This document shows positions 8,776-25,802 of a stretch of 34,928 nucleotides of DNA, in pieces. Positions within the stretch are counted from its first letter, which is position 1. Each line of letters starts with the position of its first letter. This DNA comes from a virus (lineage: Duplodnaviria; Heunggongvirae; Uroviricota; Caudoviricetes): IMG/VR virus record IMGVR_UViG_3300026224_000021. One strand, 5' to 3'. The notes under the pieces are model-generated. The model saw only the letters and a program-made list of their open reading frames with translations, had not been told where the DNA came from and searched no databases. Position numbers and translations under genes: made by a program.

Positions 8776-9407
8776 GCTTCATCTGCCTGTAATGTGTAAT
8801 GTTCCACGGACAGGCCGTAATGTCCTGCCTGTAGCGAAGCGGTTAACCAGATGGTGTCCTTTCTCACCGTTGCTTCTGCTGTGTGATACCTGTAATGGCC
8901 ATCAAATGTGCCGGCTGTCAGCCGGGCAGTGGTTGTATTGATTACCTGAAAGAAATAGCGCCTGCAGGTACGACCATACTGGCGCACGAGCTGCATCATC
9001 AGCGCGTTGTTTTCACTTAACTGGGTGTCATTAATGCGCAGTAAAATAACGTCCCAGTCATGCTGCAGTTGCCGTTCCAGTGTTTTAACGTCTCCCACGC
9101 CAAGACGCTTAAAGATGCGTTCGAAGCCGGCGCGTTCGCCAGAGTCCTGAGCGTTAATAAACGCGTGTTTCACTCTTAAGCGAAATAACGAAACCGGCTC
9201 ACCTTTAAATCGGGTGATATTGCGCTGATAAGCCAGCAGGTTAAGTAAAGGCTCTGCGCAGGTGTCGACATCAATCTGCTGTAGTGGCCACGTCAGCCAG
9301 CTGTATACCTTTTCCCAGTAGCGATGCGATGAATGTGCCAGCGTTAACGGCTCGCCTTTATTCATCCAGGTGGGGAGCGGGAATTCAGGGATCTCCGGAA
9401 GTTTCAC
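8772..9407 (-). CDS. baseplate/tail protein (gpI-like)
   Basis: 211-aa ORF between the J-like and fiber genes, translationally coupled on both sides; assignment by synteny. Confidence 0.5.
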   Translation of the reverse strand: MKLPEIPEFPLPTWMNKGEPLTLAHSSHRYWEKVYSWLTWPLQQIDVDTCAEPLLNLLAYQRNITRFKGEPVSLFRLRVKHAFINAQDSGERAGFERIFKRLGVGDVKTLERQLQHDWDVILLRINDTQLSENNALMMQLVRQYGRTCRRYFFQVINTTTARLTAGTFDGHYRYHTAEATVRKDTIWLTASLQAGHYGLSVEHYTLQADEA

Positions 9408-10591
9408 GCGCTCACCTCCACAGTAAGGGATTCCAGACGAGGAACAGCCAGATCACTGAGAATATCCGGAAGAGAAAATGTAACCGACTCCACTTGTGGA
9501 AATACCTGGTGGATCTCTTCGCCCAGTCTGGACATGCTGAAACGGCTGTACGGCCATGTTTTCTGAACGTCATAATCGCTGTTTTCGCGAAATGCGCAGC
9601 GAACCAGGTTTTCCACATTGCGCAATAACATCTGAATTTCCTCATCGCTGAGGTTCAGTGTTGCATACAGCCAGAGAGTCACGGTCAGGGTGTGGCGCGT
9701 TTCAGGCATGGAAAAACAGCGCAGATCATCACCGTGTCCGTGATGACCTTCATCGTTAATGAATGCGTTTACTGCATCAACGAACGGTTCGGATGCGATG
9801 CCGGTATCCAGCAGAATGTAAGCATTTGCTGTGCCGGGGCCGCGTGGTGCGTCATGCAGAAAATAGATGCGGTCGGCACTGATGCCGGCAACGCCGGCAA
9901 TTAATCCCCGGTAAACTGCATCGGTGTGATAAGCGCCGGCAAGATTAAACTGATTGCGAACACGATCACGCAGCTCGTCATCGCTTTCTTCGTTGGCTCC
10001 CGGTGTGGTCAGCCAGTTTTCATCGTTCTCAACACCGGCAATACCATCAATCGCCACCGGAAGGATGCGGTAATATCCCGGCGCAAGGTTAAAGCCGGCT
10101 CCGGCCTGTTCCGCAGAAACATCGATGTTCATGCTGAGTGTTCCTGCCGGAATAACGGTATCCCTGACAACGGTCAGCGTATAAATCACGCCGTTAATGC
10201 GTTCTGTCTGAATCTGCGTACCGGCCGGCACGGTAACTGTGCGATCAATGTCGTCTTTTGTGAAACGGATCACGCCGGCTGCGTGCGTGGCGGCCTTGCG
10301 TTGCAGGTTTACCGCCCAGGCAAAAACATCAACGAATACACCGCTGGCATCGGCCAGAAACAGGTTTTTCATCACCACATTAACCAGCGCATCTTTCAGC
10401 CACATCACGGGTTTTGTGGTGATGGCTGTAATCAGTCGCCAGAACGGCGACATGCGGGATGTGTTGGTGATAAGCCCTTCGTCTTTGACAATGGCTTCAA
10501 ATTCAGCGCGTGCCTGTTCTTCGGTTACCGGCATGCCGTTATCAGCCAGAATGCGCTCGTAATCTGCGGTAGGTTTGCCGTTAATCATCAA
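9404..10591 (-). CDS. baseplate protein J-like
   Basis: 395-aa ORF in the W-J-I-H order characteristic of P2-type baseplates. Confidence 0.55.
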   Translation of the reverse strand: MMINGKPTADYERILADNGMPVTEEQARAEFEAIVKDEGLITNTSRMSPFWRLITAITTKPVMWLKDALVNVVMKNLFLADASGVFVDVFAWAVNLQRKAATHAAGVIRFTKDDIDRTVTVPAGTQIQTERINGVIYTLTVVRDTVIPAGTLSMNIDVSAEQAGAGFNLAPGYYRILPVAIDGIAGVENDENWLTTPGANEESDDELRDRVRNQFNLAGAYHTDAVYRGLIAGVAGISADRIYFLHDAPRGPGTANAYILLDTGIASEPFVDAVNAFINDEGHHGHGDDLRCFSMPETRHTLTVTLWLYATLNLSDEEIQMLLRNVENLVRCAFRENSDYDVQKTWPYSRFSMSRLGEEIHQVFPQVESVTFSLPDILSDLAVPRLESLTVEVSA

Positions 10592-10931
10592 GAGATACCG
10601 TAAAAGTCAGGGGATCAAAAAAATCTTCGGTGTGGGCGCTAATCAGCAGGCGACCAGAAAGCGGGGTTTCTTCTGTCACACTGACCGTGCCGGGTGTGAT
10701 GCGCTCATCATCTTCAATCAGCAGCGTCATCTGCATCATGATGTCGGCACGAAGCGTCGGGCTTTTTTCAGCCAGCAGGCGCGTTGCCAGTCCACTCTCA
10801 ATGATGGCGTGCTGGCAGTCCTGGGCAATACTTTCTCTGTTGTTGCATAACACCGGCTCACTGGCGCTGTTCAGCGTGAGATTGCGACCGGTGATGAGCA
10901 AATCAATGTAAAGCGGTTTATCAGTATGCAT
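10581..10931 (-). CDS. baseplate wedge protein (gpW / gp25-like)
   Basis: 116-aa ORF between the tape measure and J-like genes; size and position match P2 gpW. Confidence 0.45.
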   Translation of the reverse strand: MHTDKPLYIDLLITGRNLTLNSASEPVLCNNRESIAQDCQHAIIESGLATRLLAEKSPTLRADIMMQMTLLIEDDERITPGTVSVTEETPLSGRLLISAHTEDFFDPLTFTVSLDD

Positions 10932-13095
10932 GTAGCTCCATCCACTCGTTGAGACGGGCAGGGGAGGGATCCTGTACGTTAACGTTGACTACACGACGGG
11001 AGTTGTCGATTGTGGTCTGGTTTTCGCTGTTGCTCTGCATCTCTGCCGCAATGCCACCCGGCCCCGCGCTGATGGCTTTACCGCCGGTTAATACGGAGCC
11101 TTCGCCACTTCCTGTGCTTTCTGATGTGCCGATGTTAACGCCGGGGATCATGTTGAGTTTGTCCACAATCCAGCCCCATGAATCACTGAAGGACTGTTTC
11201 ACCAGTTCCCAGAGGTTGCTGAAAATAGCCAGGATCCCGGAAGCCAGATTTTTCAGTGAATCCAGAGGGTGAGTAATATCCAGGCTGTTCCAGATATCCT
11301 TATACCCCTGCAGAATAATGAGCAGGGCCTGCCACACTTTTGATAACAGTCCGAGCATGATTTCAGTTGGCGTCAGGATCCAGTTGATTGCTGTGGCAAC
11401 GATACGGCCAAAAGACGCACCGGCATCGCTGGCGCGTCCGAACGCTTCGCCCGTCAGTTCTACCGGTGTGAGTAAATTCATCAGCCAGTTAAATGCTGTT
11501 TTGATGGCATCCCATACAAAACCAAAAACAGCGCCGATATCGGCCAGAATGGGAGAGCCAAGTGAAATAGTCTTCCATGCATCGCTGAACCCCTGAATGA
11601 ATCCGCTGAAAAACGCTTTGATGGGTTCCCAGAATTTCCAGACAAGAGCAACAACTGCTGCAATGGCTGCACCAATAAGCAGAATGGGCCCGCTCATCAT
11701 CAACATGGTGGTAAGAAAGCCGTGTCCTGTCAGCATTGAAACCAGCATGACCCTGTTCAGATATTGTTGTGCGGCGGCATAAGCCCCTGTTGCAGCAGCG
11801 GCCAGTGTATTTCGCAATGCGCTTAACCTGAGAAGCTTTATTAAGCCTGTTACGGGGGCAATCAGCCCTTTTGTTACAAAGCTGAACAGTCCCATGATGA
11901 TATTGCTGAGAGCGCCAACGGTTGCGAGGCTAAGAAAAGTCCCCGCCAGTAAACCAATTGCACGCGTGATGTTTGGATACAGACGTAACCAGGCAACAAA
12001 GGATTTGCCGCCTTCGTTGCTTTTCTGGATGAATGGGTACAGAACGGGCAACAACTGTGTGCCAATTTCGATGCGAATGCCGTTAATAATTGCGGCGGCC
12101 TGTTCCCATGGATCAGCCATGGCCTGCGCCATTTCGACAGCCTTATCCATACCTTTGATATTGCCCAGCGTGGCGATATTCTTTTCAAGTCCGCCAATGT
12201 CCGCATTGAGTAATTTAATCATGGCCACAGCTTCATCGGAGCCAAAGGCGCTTTTCAGCAAATCGGAATCAGCCACTTTTGACAGATCACCAAATTTACC
12301 CCTGATAAGTTTCATGATCTCGACAACACTTTTCATCGTGCCGTCTTTATTCACGAAATTAAGTCCCAGCTTTTTCTGGGCGCTGCCTACTGCGGCAAGA
12401 AATGCCTTGTACTTTGTCCCGGCCTCGCTGCCACTCATGGTGGCCTGCAGTTGTCCCAGCACGGCGAACTGTTCAGCCGCATCAATACCAGCCGCTTTTG
12501 CGCTGGCACCCAGCGTGGTGAACGCTGCTGACATGTTATCGCCGGTGGTTTTAAACATTTGCACGGCGGTGGCGGTTTGCCCGGCGACCTGCTCCACCCA
12601 TTTGCTTTTTCCCATGGCATCAGCCTGGTCTTTAAAGATGCCGTACATGGTGCCCATGTAGGCGGTAATGGTCTGGCTGCTGGATTTGGTTGCTGCTGCT
12701 ACCGTTGCTGATGCGGTGGTGAAGCGGGACAGCTCATCGTCAGTTAACCCGGCAATGGCTGACTGGATGTCGTAAGAAGCACGCACAAAATCCTGCGCAG
12801 CCCCGCCGTATTCCATAGTGAAATCAACGGCGGCGCGGCTGAGTTTTCGCAGTCCGGACTCTGCGACGCCCAGTGATTTTACCTCACCGAGCGCCCTGTC
12901 CATTTCAATGGCTGGCATCAGTGCACCCTGAATGGCTGCACCCACTCCCCAGAGTGCAGCGCCTCCGGTAGCAATGTCCCGAAAGGCTCCCCGACTTGTT
13001 GCAGCAAATCCCTGAACCTGTCGCCCGGCTGCACGCAACGGCCTTGTCAGGCGGTCTGTCAGTTCAAGAAGTAATTCAAGGCGCTGTTGTGACAT
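10921..13095 (-). CDS. tail tape measure protein
   Basis: 724-aa ORF, Ala/Gly-rich with several long hydrophobic segments, immediately downstream of the frameshifting chaperone. Confidence 0.75.
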   Translation of the reverse strand: MSQQRLELLLELTDRLTRPLRAAGRQVQGFAATSRGAFRDIATGGAALWGVGAAIQGALMPAIEMDRALGEVKSLGVAESGLRKLSRAAVDFTMEYGGAAQDFVRASYDIQSAIAGLTDDELSRFTTASATVAAATKSSSQTITAYMGTMYGIFKDQADAMGKSKWVEQVAGQTATAVQMFKTTGDNMSAAFTTLGASAKAAGIDAAEQFAVLGQLQATMSGSEAGTKYKAFLAAVGSAQKKLGLNFVNKDGTMKSVVEIMKLIRGKFGDLSKVADSDLLKSAFGSDEAVAMIKLLNADIGGLEKNIATLGNIKGMDKAVEMAQAMADPWEQAAAIINGIRIEIGTQLLPVLYPFIQKSNEGGKSFVAWLRLYPNITRAIGLLAGTFLSLATVGALSNIIMGLFSFVTKGLIAPVTGLIKLLRLSALRNTLAAAATGAYAAAQQYLNRVMLVSMLTGHGFLTTMLMMSGPILLIGAAIAAVVALVWKFWEPIKAFFSGFIQGFSDAWKTISLGSPILADIGAVFGFVWDAIKTAFNWLMNLLTPVELTGEAFGRASDAGASFGRIVATAINWILTPTEIMLGLLSKVWQALLIILQGYKDIWNSLDITHPLDSLKNLASGILAIFSNLWELVKQSFSDSWGWIVDKLNMIPGVNIGTSESTGSGEGSVLTGGKAISAGPGGIAAEMQSNSENQTTIDNSRRVVNVNVQDPSPARLNEWMELHAY

Positions 13096-13292
13096 TACGA
13101 TCCCTTAAAAGCACGGATAATGCCGTTATTGACGGCGATGCTCATATTTTCCCAGTAGTGGTTATCCAGCCAGACGGCGGCAGCCAGTGACTGCGGCGAG
13201 TCATCCTCGCCGGGCAGCCAGTGGCGGCGCAGAATCAGCATCCGGGTAAGGTCATTGCGATCAATGGCCCCCAGATGGCTTTTTATTTTTTT
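13096..13292 (-). other. programmed -1 ribosomal frameshift site and E'-type extension of the tail assembly chaperone
   Basis: A AAA AAA slippery heptamer (minus-strand 13292-13286) at the last two Lys codons of the chaperone; the -1 frame stays open for about 62 codons and ends at a TAA (13098-13096) overlapping the tape measure ATG as TAATG. Confidence 0.65.
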
Positions 13293-19553: not shown

Positions 19554-20450
19554 TTACACCAGGTTAAAAGTTTCGCCACCGGCCGGATTGTTGCCCGGCA
19601 GCTTCGTGGCGTCCTTGCTGAGTTCAGCAAATGCGGTTTCCATACTGGTAACCTTCTCCGCGATGGCGTTCACTGTGGAGAACAGCTTTTCGCCCTGCTC
19701 GGTGGTCAGCGTGAAGGTTTTGTCGTCCTTGTTGTTCTGTTCTGCGTTGTCCTGCCCCTGATCGCCGGTGCTGCCTTCCGGCTTGTTATCACCGGTATCT
19801 TTCGGGGCATCCTTCGCGCTGAACTGCGCGACGTTTTTTTCCAGCTCGTCCAGGCGTTCACTGGTTTTATTAATGGCACCCATTAACTGGCTGAACTGTT
19901 CTTCGTTCATGGCTTGGTAAATTCCCTGTTGGTGATTGTCAGATGAGAAGAAGCGGGAGAAGAAGTTGCGCTTGGCCTGCTCATCATCAGGCTGCAGCGT
20001 AAAATTCAGCGCCTCTGCGTTGCCCATATGGATGGCTTCCCCCATGGAAAACTGCAGGCGTGTAGTGTTAATGCTGGCTGGGGTATCCGTCACGGCGATA
20101 CCGGACACAAAGAATTTGCCCGTGCCCAGATAGTTTTCCCGCACTTCAATGGAGGTAAAAAGTTTCTGCCCGGCCTTATTGGCTTCAATCAGGAAGCGAT
20201 TTGGGATCAGGCGTGCTTTAAGCTGCACCTTTTCACCAAATTTTTCGACTTTCAGGGCATCAACAATGCCGTAGTTATTGGTGAAGGCACGCCATCCGGA
20301 ATCGGCGTGATATGGCCAGAGCATGGCGGCTCGCTCGTCCGGGTTGTAAACCTCGGCGGCATCCGTCAGCCACTTCGGATCAATTTCCCGACCGTCGATG
20401 GTGGGGCCTGATGTGGCAACCACAACCCAGTCTGTTTTCTGCTTCGTCAT
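19554..20450 (-). CDS. O: capsid scaffolding protein (gpO-like)
   Basis: 298-aa ORF; N-terminal ...TIDGREI... and ...VSGIAVTDTPAS... resemble P2 O; acidic C-terminal half; first gene of the leftward late operon. Confidence 0.75.
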   Translation of the reverse strand: MTKQKTDWVVVATSGPTIDGREIDPKWLTDAAEVYNPDERAAMLWPYHADSGWRAFTNNYGIVDALKVEKFGEKVQLKARLIPNRFLIEANKAGQKLFTSIEVRENYLGTGKFFVSGIAVTDTPASINTTRLQFSMGEAIHMGNAEALNFTLQPDDEQAKRNFFSRFFSSDNHQQGIYQAMNEEQFSQLMGAINKTSERLDELEKNVAQFSAKDAPKDTGDNKPEGSTGDQGQDNAEQNNKDDKTFTLTTEQGEKLFSTVNAIAEKVTSMETAFAELSKDATKLPGNNPAGGETFNLV

Positions 20451-20644
20451 CTGAATTAATCCGCTGATAAAAATTAAACTGGCGTTATTTAACGGAGAAA
20501 TGAAAACGTCGTCATCTGATTAATTTCCGGTACTTTCGGATATGCGCATATATCCGAAAAATACCGAAAAGCGATATTCGTTTTTAAAAAAGCCTTTGCT
20601 GAAAATGCATAAATTAAAATTGCATCAGCAGGTGAGGTTTATTT
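20451..20644. promoter_or_regulatory. divergent late promoter region between O and P with a perfect 10-bp inverted repeat
   Basis: TTTCGGATAT-gcgcat-ATATCCGAAA at 20534-20559, then a ccgaaaa direct repeat; AT-rich; no TGT-N12-ACA Ogr-type site seen by eye. Confidence 0.5.
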
Positions 20645-22432
20645 ATGGCGTATTCTGATGAGGTGATTGCTGCTGCAAAATCGCTCTATCTGAAAAGGCA
20701 CACACCAAAAGAAATACAAAAGAAACTCGGACTGAACAGCCCGCGAATTGTTTATTACTGGGCGACAAAGTTTGAGTGGTACACGCAGCTCAATACGGAA
20801 GGCGTGGAAGATGTTATCGCCCGGCGTCTCGCTGTACTGGCGGAGCGTGACCATAAAACGCCGGAAGAGCACGATGAACTCGACCGCCTGATTGGTCATC
20901 ACGTCAAACTAATGTCGGTCAGAAACAAGCACACGGAACGAATGGCTGAGATTGCGCGAATGGGAGTGGACATCCCCCAGCCTGGCCGTTATGGAAAAGA
21001 AGAACGCGGAGAAAAAGGCGCAGGGAAGAAAGAGCGTCCCCGCAAAACTAATGACGTTTCCGGACTGACTGCTGAAAGTTTTGAGCCGTTTACGAAGAAG
21101 TTGTTTGCTTATCAGTTGCGCCTGCGTGAAAACAAATTCCGCCGCGTACGCAACCTGCTTAAATCCCGCCAGATTGGGGCGACGTATTACTTCGCGTTTG
21201 AGGCATTTGAAGATGCAGTATTAACCGGCGACACACAGATATTTTTATCGGCATCAAAACGTCAGGCCGAAGTGTTCCGTACTTATATTGTAAAAATTGC
21301 ACAAACAGAGTTTGGCATTCCCATTAAAGGCAATCCGGTTAAGTTAAGTAATCTGGCTGAACTGTATTTTCTGGCGACCAACAGTAACACAGCGCAGTCA
21401 AACAGCGGCCACCTGTATATTGATGAATACCTGTGGATCCCCGGTTTTCGCCGTCTCAATGAAGTGGCATCAGGGATGGCCACCCATAAACACTGGCGCA
21501 TTACCTATTTCTCCACGCCGTCATCCAAAACACACCAGGGTTACCCGTTCTGGTCTGGCGATGAATGGCGCAAAGGCGATCCGAAACGAAAAGGGGTTGA
21601 GTTTCCGTCCTTTGATGAGCTGCGCGATGGTGGGCGTGAATGTCCGGATGGTCAGTGGCGCTATGTGGTTACGCTGGAAGATGCCATTGCCGGCGGCTTT
21701 AACCTTGCTGACATCAACGAGCTGCGCGAGCGATACAACGAAACAGCGTTCAATATGCTGTTTATGTGTGTGTTTGTGGATGACAAAGAGAGCGTCTTTA
21801 AATTCGATGATCTTGTGCGTTGTGGTGTTGATGTCAGTACGTGGGAGGATTTTCACCCGGAAGAGCCCGTGCCATTTGGTAACCGTGAAGTGTGGGGCGG
21901 CTTTGACCCTGCGCGCTCCGGCGATAACGCCACATTTGTTGTGCTGGCACCGCCGCTGGTTGCGGCAGAACGATTCCGCGTGCTGGAAAAACACCACTGG
22001 CGCAGCATGTCATTCCAGTTTATGGCAGAGCGTATACGCAGCATTAAAGCACGCTATAACATGACGTTTATCGGCATTGACGTCACCGGTCTTGGCTACG
22101 GTGTCTTTGAGCTGGTTCAGGGGTTTGCCCGCCGTGAAACAGTGGCCATTCATTACAGCGTGGAATCCAAAAACCGCCTGGTGATGAAGATGCTGGATCT
22201 GATTTACGCCAACCGTATTGAGTGGGATGAAGAAGCCACGGATATTCCGGCATCGTTCCTGGCCATTCGTCAGGAATCCACCAACAGCGGCAATAAAGTC
22301 ACTTTCACCGCCGAACGTAGCGAAGAAACCGGGCACGCTGACATCTTCTTTGCCATAGCTCATGCCGCAAGTAATGAACCCCTGAACTATAAGCACAAGC
22401 GCAAATCAACATGGATCCTGTCAGATGAGTAA
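20645..22432 (+). CDS. P: terminase large (ATPase) subunit (gpP-like)
   Basis: 595-aa ORF divergent from O and followed by the portal gene; P2 P is about 590 aa; AGGTGAGG Shine-Dalgarno upstream. Confidence 0.8.
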   Translation: MAYSDEVIAAAKSLYLKRHTPKEIQKKLGLNSPRIVYYWATKFEWYTQLNTEGVEDVIARRLAVLAERDHKTPEEHDELDRLIGHHVKLMSVRNKHTERMAEIARMGVDIPQPGRYGKEERGEKGAGKKERPRKTNDVSGLTAESFEPFTKKLFAYQLRLRENKFRRVRNLLKSRQIGATYYFAFEAFEDAVLTGDTQIFLSASKRQAEVFRTYIVKIAQTEFGIPIKGNPVKLSNLAELYFLATNSNTAQSNSGHLYIDEYLWIPGFRRLNEVASGMATHKHWRITYFSTPSSKTHQGYPFWSGDEWRKGDPKRKGVEFPSFDELRDGGRECPDGQWRYVVTLEDAIAGGFNLADINELRERYNETAFNMLFMCVFVDDKESVFKFDDLVRCGVDVSTWEDFHPEEPVPFGNREVWGGFDPARSGDNATFVVLAPPLVAAERFRVLEKHHWRSMSFQFMAERIRSIKARYNMTFIGIDVTGLGYGVFELVQGFARRETVAIHYSVESKNRLVMKMLDLIYANRIEWDEEATDIPASFLAIRQESTNSGNKVTFTAERSEETGHADIFFAIAHAASNEPLNYKHKRKSTWILSDE

Positions 22433-23459
22433 AAAGAAAAAATACCCCGTGTTACACGATGGCGTGGCAAAAAAAACAGCCAGCAAAATGACTTTTATTG
22501 AATTTGGTGACCCGGAACCGGTCGCTGCATGGGGCTGTTATTACGGCTCGCTCTGGGATGGCTATAACGGCTGGTACACGCCGCCCATTGAGCGCATGGA
22601 TCTCGCCATGTTGTCCAATATCGCACCGTATCACGGCGCGGTATTGCGTGCGCGCGTCAATATGATCATGCAGGGTTTTCGGGGTGGTGGTGGTATGACA
22701 CACGCCGCCATGGCGGCAGCAGTAACCAATCTGCTGATATTCGGGGATATGGGGTTGCTTAAAGTGCGCAATGGCTTCGGTCGGGTGGTGCGCCTGCATA
22801 CGTTACCTTCTCTGTACCTGCGGCGTAACAACGAGGGTGGCACGGTGATTGTGCAGGCGGCACTGGAAGATCTCGTTTACCCGCCAGGCGAAGTGGTGTT
22901 CGTGGCCATTTATGACCCGCAACAGCAGGTTTACGGTGTCCCGGATTATATTCACGGGATGGAATCCGCCATGCTGAATGTGGATGCCACCCGCTTTCGC
23001 CGCAAGTATTACAAGAACGGCGCACATCTTGGTTATATCCTGTATTCCACTGACCCGGACATGGATCCCGAGCTCGAGGCGGAATTCCGTAAAAAGATAG
23101 AGGCGTCAAAAGGGGCGGGCAATTTTAAATCCATGTTTATCAATATACCGGGCGGAGACAAAGAAGGCGTTAAGGTGATCCCTATCGGGGATTCAGGTAC
23201 AAAAGATGAGTTCCTGAATATAAAAACCATCAGTGCCCAGGATCAGCTCGTTGCGCACCGTTTCCCACCCGGACTTGCCGGCATCATTCCCGCAAATACG
23301 GCCGGGCTTGGTGACCCACTGAAATCCCGCGAGGCATATTACAGGGATGAGGTTATTCCGATGCGCCGCCTGATTATGGAGGGAATCAACAGTGACCCGG
23401 ATATCAGGCGACTGGGGGAGGTGAAATTTATTCTTGATTTTGATGAACCCATGGAGTGA
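22425..23459 (+). CDS. Q: portal protein (gpQ-like)
   Basis: 344-aa ORF overlapping the end of P by 8 nt; same length as P2 Q. Confidence 0.8.
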   Translation: MSKKKKYPVLHDGVAKKTASKMTFIEFGDPEPVAAWGCYYGSLWDGYNGWYTPPIERMDLAMLSNIAPYHGAVLRARVNMIMQGFRGGGGMTHAAMAAAVTNLLIFGDMGLLKVRNGFGRVVRLHTLPSLYLRRNNEGGTVIVQAALEDLVYPPGEVVFVAIYDPQQQVYGVPDYIHGMESAMLNVDATRFRRKYYKNGAHLGYILYSTDPDMDPELEAEFRKKIEASKGAGNFKSMFINIPGGDKEGVKVIPIGDSGTKDEFLNIKTISAQDQLVAHRFPPGLAGIIPANTAGLGDPLKSREAYYRDEVIPMRRLIMEGINSDPDIRRLGEVKFILDFDEPME

Positions 23460-23524: not shown

Positions 23525-23782
23525 ATGCGCAGACAGAAAGCGCGATGTCATTGCTGCGGTGCACATGCAGTGATTGAGAAAACAGCCTGGAAAACCGATC
23601 AGTTTGCTGATGTGTATTACCGTTGCACCCGTCTCGAGTGCGGACATACCTGGGTGATGAATCTGACCTACTCGCACACACTGGTGCCCAGCGGGCTGGA
23701 GAATGGTGTGTTAAAGCTGTTGATTGAGCGGATGCGTCCGGAAGAAAAACAAATGGCTCTGGAGTTGTTGCAGGCCGGATAG
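23525..23782 (+). CDS. ogr: Ogr/Delta-type zinc-finger late transcription activator
   Basis: C-x2-C-x22-C-x4-C spacing (CHCC ... CTRLEC) identical to the P2 Ogr zinc-finger pattern; the internal Met at 23525 has a GGGAGGTG Shine-Dalgarno. Confidence 0.7.
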   Translation: MRRQKARCHCCGAHAVIEKTAWKTDQFADVYYRCTRLECGHTWVMNLTYSHTLVPSGLENGVLKLLIERMRPEEKQMALELLQAG

Positions 23783-23804: not shown

Positions 23805-23852
23805 CCCGGAACGGGCGCACAAAGAATTTGCGCACCCGTTCCGGGTTTTCTT
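23805..23852. terminator. terminator hairpin between convergent ogr and accessory operon
   Basis: cccggaacgg ... ccgttccggg stem with an inner gcgc pairing, followed on the plus strand by ttttcttattc. Confidence 0.6.
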
Positions 23853-24222
23853 ATTCAATGGCAGACAACTGATAATTTGTGTCTTCCTGCAGGCTGGTTA
23901 AAGAAATATTATCCAGTGCAGCCAGAATAACGTGCTGTGTATATAATCCGGAACATTTCATTGCCCGGACAATATCACCAACACTGTAATTTTCTTTTGT
24001 CGGGATATATCCACCACCCGGGCCGCGTGTGGCTTTTACCAGGCTACTTTCCCGTAAATATCTGAATATTTGCTCCAGATATGACAGTGAAACGGTTTCT
24101 TTGCTTAATTGCCGGAGCGAGATTGGCTTTCCGGTGTACTGTTTCACAAATTTAATCATTACCATAACTGCAACTGATGCACGCTGGCTTCCGGAATTAT
24201 CTTTCATCATGATTACTTCCAT
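23851..24222 (-). CDS. Rrf2-family transcriptional regulator, no Fe-S cysteine cluster
   Basis: SLSYLEQIFRYLRESSLVKATRGPGGGY matches the Rrf2 helix-turn-helix signature (compare IscR [29 protein letters not shown], from memory); only one Cys in the C-terminal half; start coupled as TAATG (alternative ATG at 24207). Confidence 0.7.
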   Translation of the reverse strand: MEVIMMKDNSGSQRASVAVMVMIKFVKQYTGKPISLRQLSKETVSLSYLEQIFRYLRESSLVKATRGPGGGYIPTKENYSVGDIVRAMKCSGLYTQHVILAALDNISLTSLQEDTNYQLSAIE

Positions 24223-24527
24223 TAATGGCATAAATTGATGGAGCGGGTCAGTGAATAAAGAGGCAATACATTCCATCCCTTAGAGCGCCAGCTGTCTGCA
24301 ACATCTTTACTTCTTGTTATCGCCGGTATTCCAATAGGATTATTTGCGTGCATCCATGCCACTGGCTCTGCTTCCAGTGATGCAAGTGCGATTTCCAGTG
24401 CGATTAACATATTGTGATCGTCTTCATCAAGACCGAACGGGATGTCTTCGCGCCACGATTTAAACTCTGTGATTTTACGTTGTAACCATTCTTTGGTAAT
24501 GGTGGACATAGTTACTCCTGTTTTCAC
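24222..24527 (-). CDS. hypothetical protein coupled between parR and the Rrf2 gene
   Basis: 101-aa ORF whose ATG overlaps the ParR stop (ATGA) and whose stop overlaps the Rrf2 start (TAATG). Confidence 0.5.
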   Translation of the reverse strand: MKTGVTMSTITKEWLQRKITEFKSWREDIPFGLDEDDHNMLIALEIALASLEAEPVAWMHANNPIGIPAITRSKDVADSWRSKGWNVLPLYSLTRSINLCH

Positions 24528-24838
24528 TTCGGGAAAAACGCCTGAATATTCTTTTTCACCTGCTGCATATGGGGGGCGCTGTCTGCTGCTGGTTGCGCCG
24601 GTTTTTCAGGCTGTACTGGTAGCGGTGGCATCCGTATTTCGTCTTCTGACCATTCTGCCAGTGAATACGCCAACGCGGGGGTGCGTTTTATAAGAGCCAG
24701 TCCGGCCAGAAAAGCCGCGCGTTGTGCGCGGCTGCGTTCGGAGGCTGGCAGGCTGTCGAGGTAACTGCACGCCTCCCGTTCGCTCTTGACGGCGGCGGGC
24801 TTCAGATAGAAACTTATCCGTCTGGTTGGTGTCGTCAT
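24524..24838 (-). CDS. parR: ParR/StbB-like ribbon-helix-helix partition adaptor
   Basis: about 105 aa from the internal Met; ISFYLKPAAVKSEREACSYLDSLPASERSRAQRAAFLAGLAL parallels plasmid R1 ParR IAFKLNPDV...CDTLDSIPQGERSRLNRAALTAGLAL (from memory); lies directly after the parM homolog. Confidence 0.7.
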   Translation of the reverse strand: MTTPTRRISFYLKPAAVKSEREACSYLDSLPASERSRAQRAAFLAGLALIKRTPALAYSLAEWSEDEIRMPPLPVQPEKPAQPAADSAPHMQQVKKNIQAFFPK

Positions 24839-24842
24839 TGGT

Positions 24843-25802
24843 TTACTCCTTGTCCATTGCGTACAGCCCATTAACCAGAGCAAACTGTGGCACCCCGTCC
24901 GCGATGAAAGTTGCATTAACTCCGCAGGCTTCGCGGATAGCGGGTGCCACAATCTCCGCTCCTCCACCGACAACCATCACCCGCCCGTAACCCGAAAAAC
25001 CCGCCAGCGCGCGGATCACGCGTTGTTTCAGTGTTTCTTCCTTTTCACGAATAACTGCCATCAGGCTGGCGTAATGCGCGTCATTGTGGATGTGCTGGCG
25101 CAGCCAGGCTTCATCATGGCGATGTTCGATAATGGTATTGGCGATGTGGTGACTGGTGCGCATACCGTTAGTGGCCATCACCGACAGTACGGCATCGGCC
25201 ATCAGAGAAACGCCTACGTGTGGATCGCAAAACACCTGGCTGATACCTGCCAGTTGCCCCTGAACCTTTGCCACATCCAGCGTGGTTCCGCCCAAATCCA
25301 CAATCAGCAGGGATTCAAACGGACTCATGTCAGCCAGTGCCTTAAAGCCAGCCGGAATGGATTCAGGCATAACCCGCACGTTACGGATAGTGAATGCCTC
25401 GCCGTTCTGGTACTCCACCGGGCGCATAACGTTCGCTTTTTTGCGGCTGATGTTGGCCATGTCCGGCTGTGCGTTTGTATCGAAATACTCGCTCAGTGGC
25501 AGGGTGACAACCACATCCACTTCCTGTGGCGTGATGCCTGATTTGACCAGCGCGTGATGAATGGCAATGACATTCACATCGCTGTACTGGTATTGCGTGT
25601 CGGTCGTCTGGATAAAGCGATCGCTGACCGGATCAAAACCATAGCGCACGCCATCAAGCATGTAGTTCGCGGGCTGCGTGCCACCGAACGGCGCAGACCA
25701 TTCCGACTTGAAGCTGTTCGGGCTGATGGCGTTGCGGCGTTCGCCGTTCTCAGTCCATGCCAGCTTGATGTTGGTGGAGCCGTCGTCGATACAAATTTTC
25801 AT
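24843..25802 (-). CDS. parM: ParM/StbA-like actin-family segregation ATPase
   Basis: 319-aa ORF; N-terminus MKICIDDGSTNIKLAW matches R1 ParM MLVFIDDGSTNIKLQW, with further matching blocks ISPNSFK, YSDVNV..HHAL, KVMRP; AAGGA Shine-Dalgarno upstream. Confidence 0.8.
   Translation of the reverse strand: MKICIDDGSTNIKLAWTENGERRNAISPNSFKSEWSAPFGGTQPANYMLDGVRYGFDPVSDRFIQTTDTQYQYSDVNVIAIHHALVKSGITPQEVDVVVTLPLSEYFDTNAQPDMANISRKKANVMRPVEYQNGEAFTIRNVRVMPESIPAGFKALADMSPFESLLIVDLGGTTLDVAKVQGQLAGISQVFCDPHVGVSLMADAVLSVMATNGMRTSHHIANTIIEHRHDEAWLRQHIHNDAHYASLMAVIREKEETLKQRVIRALAGFSGYGRVMVVGGGAEIVAPAIREACGVNATFIADGVPQFALVNGLYAMDKE

Follow-up and report, generated by a model that had tools for sequence, protein, structure and literature searches.

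Which sequence directs late transcription in a P2-like prophage when the dyad known from P2 late promoters is missing between the divergent O and P genes? Nearly all that is known about late control by Ogr-type activators comes from P2, 186, and P4. P2 Ogr binds a site at the late promoters, and activation requires the α subunit of RNA polymerase, as indicated by the rpoA109 phenotype. The TGT-N12-ACA class of sites is used by P2 Ogr, 186 B, P4 Delta, PSP3 Pag, and phiR73 Delta, and a search for this dyad is the usual way of annotating late promoters in P2-like phages.

The DNA analyzed here (the window) is the whole 34,928-nt stretch of IMG/VR record IMGVR_UViG_3300026224_000021, a P2-like prophage with late genes of the HP1/K139 type. 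Its O-P region is 100% identical to that of a chromosomal prophage located beside pheL/pheA in E. coli STEC313, and its P protein shares 99% identity with an E. albertii counterpart. A preliminary description, made from the letters of the sequence, reported a perfect inverted repeat and an adjacent direct repeat between O and P, saw no P2-type dyad there although an Ogr-type zinc-finger gene was present, and suggested that either a late activator with a different site specificity or another regulator, such as a nearby Rrf2 protein, acts at this promoter. Our comparison of related phages makes it probable that the palindrome is the core of an upstream activator site shared by the two divergent late promoters of this HP1/K139-lineage prophage, a site that its Ogr homolog would bind.

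Results

A phased array of half-sites between O and P

Repeat finding returned the palindrome as a 10-nt pair, 100% complementary, with a 6-nt spacer. The pattern TTTCGGATAT-N6-ATATCCGAAA has this one match across the window, even when 3 mismatches are allowed, and none of 100 shuffled sequences matched it; the perfect inverted repeat is therefore as first described. The direct repeat is also real, as CCGAAAA occurs at 20554-20560 and at 20564-20570, a spacing of 10 bp, and its second copy proved to be the P-proximal outer half-site of a larger element.

That larger element is seen in a dyad-anchored comparison of 11 phages and then of 31 non-redundant sequences, together with an information-content profile. 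Its general form is [TTCGG]-N5-[TTCGG]-N14-[CCGAA]-N5-[CCGAA], in which the inner pair is separated by N14 and the outer sites lie 10 bp further out (Table 1). Thus, the earlier picture of a 10-bp palindrome followed by a direct repeat was accurate as a description of the sequence but too narrow in extent, since the element is a symmetric array of four half-sites. The center of the array is the midpoint of the O-P spacer. The P-proximal outer position is CCGAA or CCGAT in 20 of the 31 non-redundant sequences, and the outer O-proximal half-site, degenerate in the window, is TTCGG in K139, PV94, and YenM_324. Both outer half-sites are full TTCGG/CCGAA in PV94 and in loci L056 and L161; in K139 the left one is full and the right one reads CGGAA. 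Half-site variants are TTCGGATAT, TTCGGTTAT, and TTTGGATAT. On the basis of this arrangement, we propose that the array is a binding platform for a late activator.

Table 1. Features of the O-P region and neighboring genes, in window coordinates
Feature	Position	Strand	Sequence or extent	Basis or remark
gpO capsid scaffold	19554-20450	-		Pfam PF05929 (Phage_GPO) 5.9e-37; STEC313 RefSeq annotation; first gene of leftward late operon
O start codon	20448-20450	-	CAT	
O-P intergenic gap	20451-20644		194 bp	exact interval from O start codon to P start codon
O promoter transcription start	~20480	-		predicted from hexamer only
O promoter -10	20487-20492	-	TTAAAT	predicted; mirror-image offset 43
O promoter -35-like hexamer	20510-20515	-	ATGACG	predicted; 17 nt upstream of -10
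Whole half-site array	20525-20568		44 bp; [TTCCG]-N5-[TTCGG]-N14-[CCGAA]-N5-[CCGAA]	center 20546.5; dyad-anchored comparison
Outer O-proximal half-site	20525-20529	+	TTCCG	degenerate in window
Core perfect palindrome	20534-20559		TTTCGGATAT-GCGCAT-ATATCCGAAA	two inner half-sites plus N6 spacer
Outer P-proximal half-site	20564-20568	+	CCGAA	ends 32 nt before P-side -10 hexamer
P promoter -35 region	20578-20583	+	TCGTTT	predicted; poor
P promoter -10	20601-20606	+	GAAAAT	predicted; offset 43
P promoter transcription start	~20613	+		predicted from hexamer only
P start codon	20645	+	ATG	
gpP large terminase	20645-22432	+		Pfam Terminase_6N, Terminase_6C, Terminase_5; first gene of rightward late operon
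gpQ portal	22425-23459	+		Pfam Phage_portal
Ogr/Delta-family zinc-finger gene	23525-23782	+	85 aa	downstream of P-Q, same direction; start per L024 RefSeq annotation
Rrf2 gene	23851-24276	-		~3.3 kb from array

The search for further half-sites that the preliminary description had called for, run here over the whole window, left a single site standing out: additional copies of TTCGG-N14-CCGAA (with up to 2 mismatches) and single half-sites occur at chance level. With one array in the window, discovery or replication of the motif within this genome is impossible, and the late genes of the prophage all seem to depend on one promoter pair.

The absence of the P2-type dyad was borne out. There is no TGT-N12-ACA in the O-P spacer, and the 10 matches across the window compare with 8.7 expected, a number reached by 39 of 100 shuffles and thus at chance level. 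Nine of these, spread over 2174-23955 in the structural and Q-to-Rrf2 part, are internal to long ORFs that we took to be genes; the remaining one, at 33839-33856, is covered by overlapping ORFs in the early region, which is unannotated. None is positioned ~55 bp upstream of a plausible late-operon start. The O-P spacers of loci L001-L004 and L024-L028 likewise lack TGT-N12-ACA, save for one chance overlap with the dyad in L025.

Conservation of the array in related phages

The array is kept in the O-P spacer of HP1/K139-lineage P2-like phages of E. coli, Edwardsiella, Yersinia, Cronobacter, Salmonella, Aeromonas, and Vibrio, and is carried in rearranged form by Haemophilus phages. In eight relatives whose P proteins are 54-99% identical to that of the window, TTCGG, TA(T), TA, and CCGAA are invariant, as is the N14 spacing. 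When the window spacer is aligned with those of E. albertii, four E. coli variants, Edwardsiella, and Yersinia massiliensis, the flanks of the array drift or are replaced while the half-sites stay. Among E. coli-lineage copies with exact arms, variation is confined to the N6 spacer, of which there are 6 variants.

The same elements recur at greater distance. The core in Vibrio phage K139 is TTCGGATAT-N6-ATATCCGAA, with arms identical to those of the window, and TTCGG-N14-CCGAA is retained in the O-P spacers of ESSI-2 (Cronobacter), vB_YenM_324 (Yersinia), phiO18P (Aeromonas), and PV94 (Vibrio). In Salmonella SW3, and in a large set of viral contigs related to it, the left inner and right outer half-sites are retained and the right inner one is degenerate. 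Haemophilus HP2 has five phased half-sites, three on the left and two on the right, with the best pair spaced N24, and Pasteurella F108 has an HP2-like set that is more degenerate and includes a degenerate inner right half-site. Since the inner right half-site is degenerate both in the SW3-like group and in F108, a perfect palindrome is evidently not essential.

Two further observations concern the neighborhood of the array in individual phages. The start annotated for the phiO18P scaffold gene overlaps with the dyad (L032 1227-1250). The conserved geometry is better matched by an ATG ~73 nt past the dyad, with GGGAG ahead of it, so the gene probably starts further downstream than annotated. 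In L027 (4363-4382), and at the same place in L026, the P leader has been replaced by one that is 36 nt longer and contains the tandem repeat TTACGGAACG TTACGGAACG; the array and the -10 hexamer are unchanged.

The motif is also specific to this context. A relaxed form, TTCGGnTA-N8-TAnCC, was found in 68 of 91 loci (873,593 bases), once per locus and never more, with 0.1 occurrences expected by chance. Wherever both genes could be located, the site lay between O and P. An unbiased scan of 2.9 million viral contigs in IMG/VR gave 39 matches to the exact dyad, 37 of them between divergent O and P starts; the other two represent one unrelated AT-rich virus, in which the 24-nt dyad resembles a terminator hairpin followed by a T-run.

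Predicted mirror-image promoters on either side of the array

No sigma-70 consensus promoter was scored in 20380-20720, and neither side of the array has a consensus -35/-10 pair, as would be expected if the promoters depend on an activator. On the P side, a -10-like hexamer (GAAAAT, AATAAT, GAGAAT, CATAAT, or TATGAT) starts 43-44 nt past the inner half-site in 28 of the 31 non-redundant sequences; the best such hexamer is at exactly 43 in 25 of them and within one or two nt in the remainder. The O side mirrors this, with a -10-like hexamer 43-44 nt past the inner half-site in 25/31 and at exactly 43 in 21/31, where it is mostly AATACT, AATAAT, or TATGGT. For the O side of the window, our scorer favored AATAAC at offset 46, and TTAAAT at offset 43 was assigned by mirror symmetry. 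Because the hexamers are mirrored at a fixed offset on both sides, one array appears to serve two mirror-image promoters.

These positions place the center of the array ~66-67 bp upstream of both predicted starts and the proximal half-sites near -47. The edge of the array is ~45 bp upstream of each predicted start, and overlaps neither the -35 nor the -10 region. The 32-nt gap from the P-proximal half-site to the -10 hexamer, which is CACAAT in HP2 and F108, is the same in those phages.

On the O side, nTGAnn is conserved at offsets 20-25 in most lineages, with TCAT invariant in alignment A1, and the -35-like hexamer reads ATGACA in Edwardsiella. We also considered a minus-strand ORF starting at 20515 (MTTFSFLR); however, its conserved ATGA is better read as part of the O-promoter -35, as in all lineages it is 17 nt from the -10.

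Several phages fix the position of the P promoter more tightly. In K139, PV94, SW3, YenM_324, ESSI-2, and Y. massiliensis, the ATG of P follows the hexamer by 6-7 nt and has no Shine-Dalgarno sequence (L033 1838-1852 for K139; also L029, L030, L031, L037, and L004). As this leaves no room for another promoter, the hexamer itself must be the promoter element, and the arrangement suggests that the mRNAs for P, the large terminase, are leaderless in these six. In the lineage of the window, the P leader is ~31 nt and contains GGTGAGG.

Two additional repeats occur in the window spacer. An exact direct repeat of 11 nt, TCGTCATCTGA, occurs at 20444-20454, across the O start codon, and again 65 bp away at 20509-20519, across the predicted O-promoter -35; it may reflect chance or a small duplication. 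An imperfect inverted repeat, GCTGATAAAAATTAAA / TTAAAATTGCATCAGC, at 20463-20478 and 20614-20629, is symmetric about the array and is found in the E. coli lineage only. Given this symmetry, both predicted late mRNAs would begin alike, with the shared segment ending ...AUCAGC just before the ribosome-binding sites.

A diverged Ogr homolog accompanies the array

The Ogr-type zinc-finger gene noted earlier is indeed present. Its 85-aa product matches PF04606 (E 1.4e-12; 47.8 bits against a cut-off of 26.3) and belongs to PHROG 603. P2 Ogr falls in the same Pfam and PHROG families, and the two proteins have the same CX2CX22CX4C spacing, which is conserved and here formed by C8-X2-C11-X22-C34-X4-C39. 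Nevertheless, BLASTP found no match between the 85-aa protein and P2 Ogr, and proteins of the HP1/K139-type subfamily have a conserved CGHTFVMN...FSHTLSPS segment. A profile of these proteins (zinc ribbon, 23525-23650 in the window) found no solved structure of the family in the PDB; its best matches there were the C-terminal zinc ribbons of the RNA polymerase subunit Rpb9 and of TFIIS (E ~5e-4).

In the array-bearing loci examined, both the Ogr-anchored ones and those of relatives, Q is followed by an Ogr homolog. The only proteins common to the window and K139 are structural proteins, Ogr, gpA, and integrase, making the Ogr homolog the only regulator-type protein that they share; the immunity and early regulators of the two belong to different types. 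In HP2, we noticed an unannotated Ogr-like zinc-finger ORF just after the portal gene (L035 6902-7129; about 9329-9556, complement, in NC_003315.1). Pseudomonas phage phi3 also has an Ogr-like ORF after its portal gene Q (L159 5001-5219) and, despite this, no recognizable TTCGG dyad.

Taken together, the conserved and context-specific dyad, the fixed distance to the -10 hexamers, and the co-occurrence of a distinct Ogr subfamily bear out the suggestion that the late activator of this prophage has a different site specificity. A recognition sequence unlike TGT-N12-ACA is what would match an Ogr homolog too diverged from P2 Ogr to be found by BLASTP. We infer that the 85-aa protein binds the array as an oligomer and that, once bound, it would recruit RNA polymerase to the two promoters, in the manner of P2 Ogr at pO and pP. 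Such activation would turn on O-N-M-L-tail-lysis leftward and P-Q-(ogr) rightward. Since ogr is downstream of P-Q with no recognizable promoter or terminator between them (a separate ogr promoter was looked for and none was found), late transcription probably feeds back positively on ogr.

Discussion

Could something other than the Ogr homolog use the array? One possibility, which we consider unlikely, is that the array is bound by another phage protein or by a host factor conserved in Enterobacterales, Vibrionales, Aeromonadales, and Pasteurellales, with Ogr acting elsewhere or indirectly. Conservation of the array across hosts fits a conserved host protein equally well, and phi3 has kept an Ogr homolog without the motif. 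In metagenome contigs, moreover, the exact dyad occurs 26 times, with 8 matches at O-P sites and 18 elsewhere. However, these 18 are in unrelated contigs with GC contents from 0.34 to 0.70, the phased outer half-sites appear to be absent from the flanking sequence inspected, and their number is, by a rough estimate, about that expected by chance. The 37 of 39 viral matches that are O-P sites also argue against a host factor, as does the fact that Ogr is the sole regulator-type protein co-inherited with the site. To our knowledge, the motif is unlike the consensus sites of the host proteins CRP, FNR, LexA, Fur, IHF, and DnaA.

It is improbable that the array is instead a repressor operator that shuts both late promoters in the lysogen. 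Palindromic arrays with 10-bp phasing are typical of repressor operators as well, and the O promoter has a -35-like hexamer of fair quality (ATGACG; ATGACA in Edwardsiella). However, an array that ends ~45 bp upstream of each predicted start, clear of the -35 and -10 regions, has the geometry of an upstream activator site, and the spacer contains no consensus promoter that would need repression. In addition, immunity and early regulators are not conserved among the phages that share the site, and P2 has an activator site at the homologous position.

The suggestion that the neighboring Rrf2-family regulator binds the palindrome has little left in its favor. Its appeal was that the gene is ~3.3 kb away and that Rrf2 proteins bind inverted repeats. 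Yet just 8 of the 55 motif-bearing IMG/VR loci have an Rrf2 gene, and these 8 are near-identical E. coli prophages. Relatives from Edwardsiella and Yersinia and two from E. coli (L002-L004, L025, and L026) lack the gene but retain the dyad, and no Rrf2 gene is listed in the regions examined from SW3, ESSI-2, YenM_324, phiO18P, and K139. The gene also travels with a ParM/StbB partition cassette. This sparse distribution indicates that Rrf2 is not the general binder of the array, and we consider its action at the O-P promoter very improbable. As far as we know, the consensus sites of IscR and NsrR are unlike TTCGG-N14-CCGAA.

Equally remote is a role as nucleic-acid structure only (a cruciform, transcription terminator, or packaging or replication signal): although the 24-nt dyad of the AT-rich virus resembles a terminator, O and P diverge and leave nothing to terminate, no terminator-like site was scored, the invariant arms without compensatory changes point to selection on half-site sequence rather than pairing, one arm is degenerate in SW3 and F108 where outer sites are kept, and in P2 the replication origin is in gene A and the cos site beyond Q.

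How does the array that we assign to the Ogr homolog compare with known late promoters? The P2 pO and pP promoters are, as in the window, between divergent O and P, and in the P2 record a single 31-bp feature, labeled "activator binding site; pO, pP promoters," is flanked by the P start at 56 bp and the O start at 55 bp. A single central site serving both promoters is thus the ancestral arrangement and not peculiar to the window prophage. The P2 promoters lack a consensus -35, and those predicted in the window seem to do so as well, although the O side has a partial one (ATGACG). In both phages, the edges of the site are ~40-45 bp upstream of the starts. What differs is the recognition sequence, TTCGGnTA-N8-TAnCCGAA with phased outer half-sites, which is unrelated to TGT-N12-ACA, and the length of the site, 44 bp as opposed to 31 bp. 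The longer array puts its center near -67 rather than at the -55 of P2, with the proximal edge still near -45. Accordingly, the preliminary description was right that this promoter departs from P2 in the sequence recognized, and site length can be added, but the single shared site is no departure. The two phages also differ in that the window has one late-promoter site and P2 has four late promoters (PMC3931495), and in that ogr follows Q in the window and the tail operon in P2. For Smp131 of Stenotrophomonas, a single dyad between divergent P and O (PP'/PO') has been proposed to serve both late promoters (PMC3931495); unlike the array of the window, it is of the TGT-N12-ACA type.

The closest counterparts are in HP2, HP1, and K139. 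The "repeat_region" between orf16 and orf17 of HP2/HP1 contains the same half-site, TTCGGATAT, at the same position between P and O. In HP2 and K139, the gap from the proximal half-site to the -10, there CA(C/T)AAT, is 32 nt as in the window, and an Ogr homolog again follows Q; unlike the window, HP2 has five half-sites and a best pair spaced N24. The GenBank record of HP2 states that the repeat "most likely contains promoters for late genes," and the existence of the repeat is therefore not new. The K139 record likewise has one long late operon and annotates only the sigma-70-style predicted promoters P16 and P17, with no dyad. A literature search found neither experimental work on the HP2 or K139 repeat nor a description of the motif consensus, the link to an Ogr subfamily, or the geometry; the HP2 and K139 genome papers, which may discuss the repeat, were outside its reach.

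The best-supported reading of these comparisons is that the array is the HP1-lineage version of an Ogr-dependent late promoter, with a different specificity and a longer site. A broader proposal, toward which we lean with somewhat less assurance, is that the Ogr proteins of the HP1/K139 lineage form a second specificity class, one that would recognize a four-site, 44-bp TTCGG-type array on one helical face, with a single complex serving two mirror promoters and, in several lineages, a leaderless terminase mRNA. If so, P2 Ogr and the window protein would constitute a natural specificity-swapped pair in a family without a solved structure. An 85-aa protein and 44 bp of DNA would also provide a simple system for learning how the Ogr/Delta zinc ribbon reads DNA.

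There are practical consequences for annotation. A large and widespread lineage, which includes HP1, K139, ESSI-2, SW3, and many E. coli, Edwardsiella, Yersinia, and Vibrio prophages, has a different and easily recognized site, and a search for TGT-N12-ACA would miss the late promoters in these genomes. A usable rule is TTCGGnTA-N8-TAnCC plus phased outer sites, with a -10 starting 43 nt beyond. Activation of P4-like satellites goes through the late activator of their helper, so the difference in sites also bears on which satellites and helpers can cross-activate.

The surroundings of the array have features of their own. Beyond ogr, on the opposite strand, are the Rrf2 gene, an StbB/ParM partition pair, and the gpA replication gene. 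A plasmid-type partition cassette is thus present in an integrated prophage: together with Rrf2, it occupies 23851-25802 on the minus strand between ogr and gpA (ParM, 24843-25802; StbB-like, 24524-24973). Of 55 related viral loci, 15 carry ParM and 8 carry Rrf2. The cassette might suggest a plasmid origin; however, there was no plasmid match, and its position beside pheL/pheA in STEC313 identifies the element as a chromosomal prophage. Away from O-P, the window and the STEC313 prophage (L024) differ in length and content, for example at ~10900-13100 (the tape-measure region) and at 28690-30000 (the early region), where STEC313 carries an SPFH-domain gene. This prophage family is mosaic.

Finally, other central palindromes are found in the O-P spacers of more distant P2-like prophages (L023 5890-5910; L006 5855-5883; L016 5936-5953). 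The spacer of Aliivibrio fischeri ES114 contains TTCTATAT-N5-ATATAGAA, a Sphingomonas spacer contains a palindrome with 14-bp arms, GCAATCGTAGAGAC, and that of Vibrio scophthalmi has a canonical TGT-N12-ACA. This variety of spacer sequences suggests that late-activator specificity has changed repeatedly among P2-like prophages.
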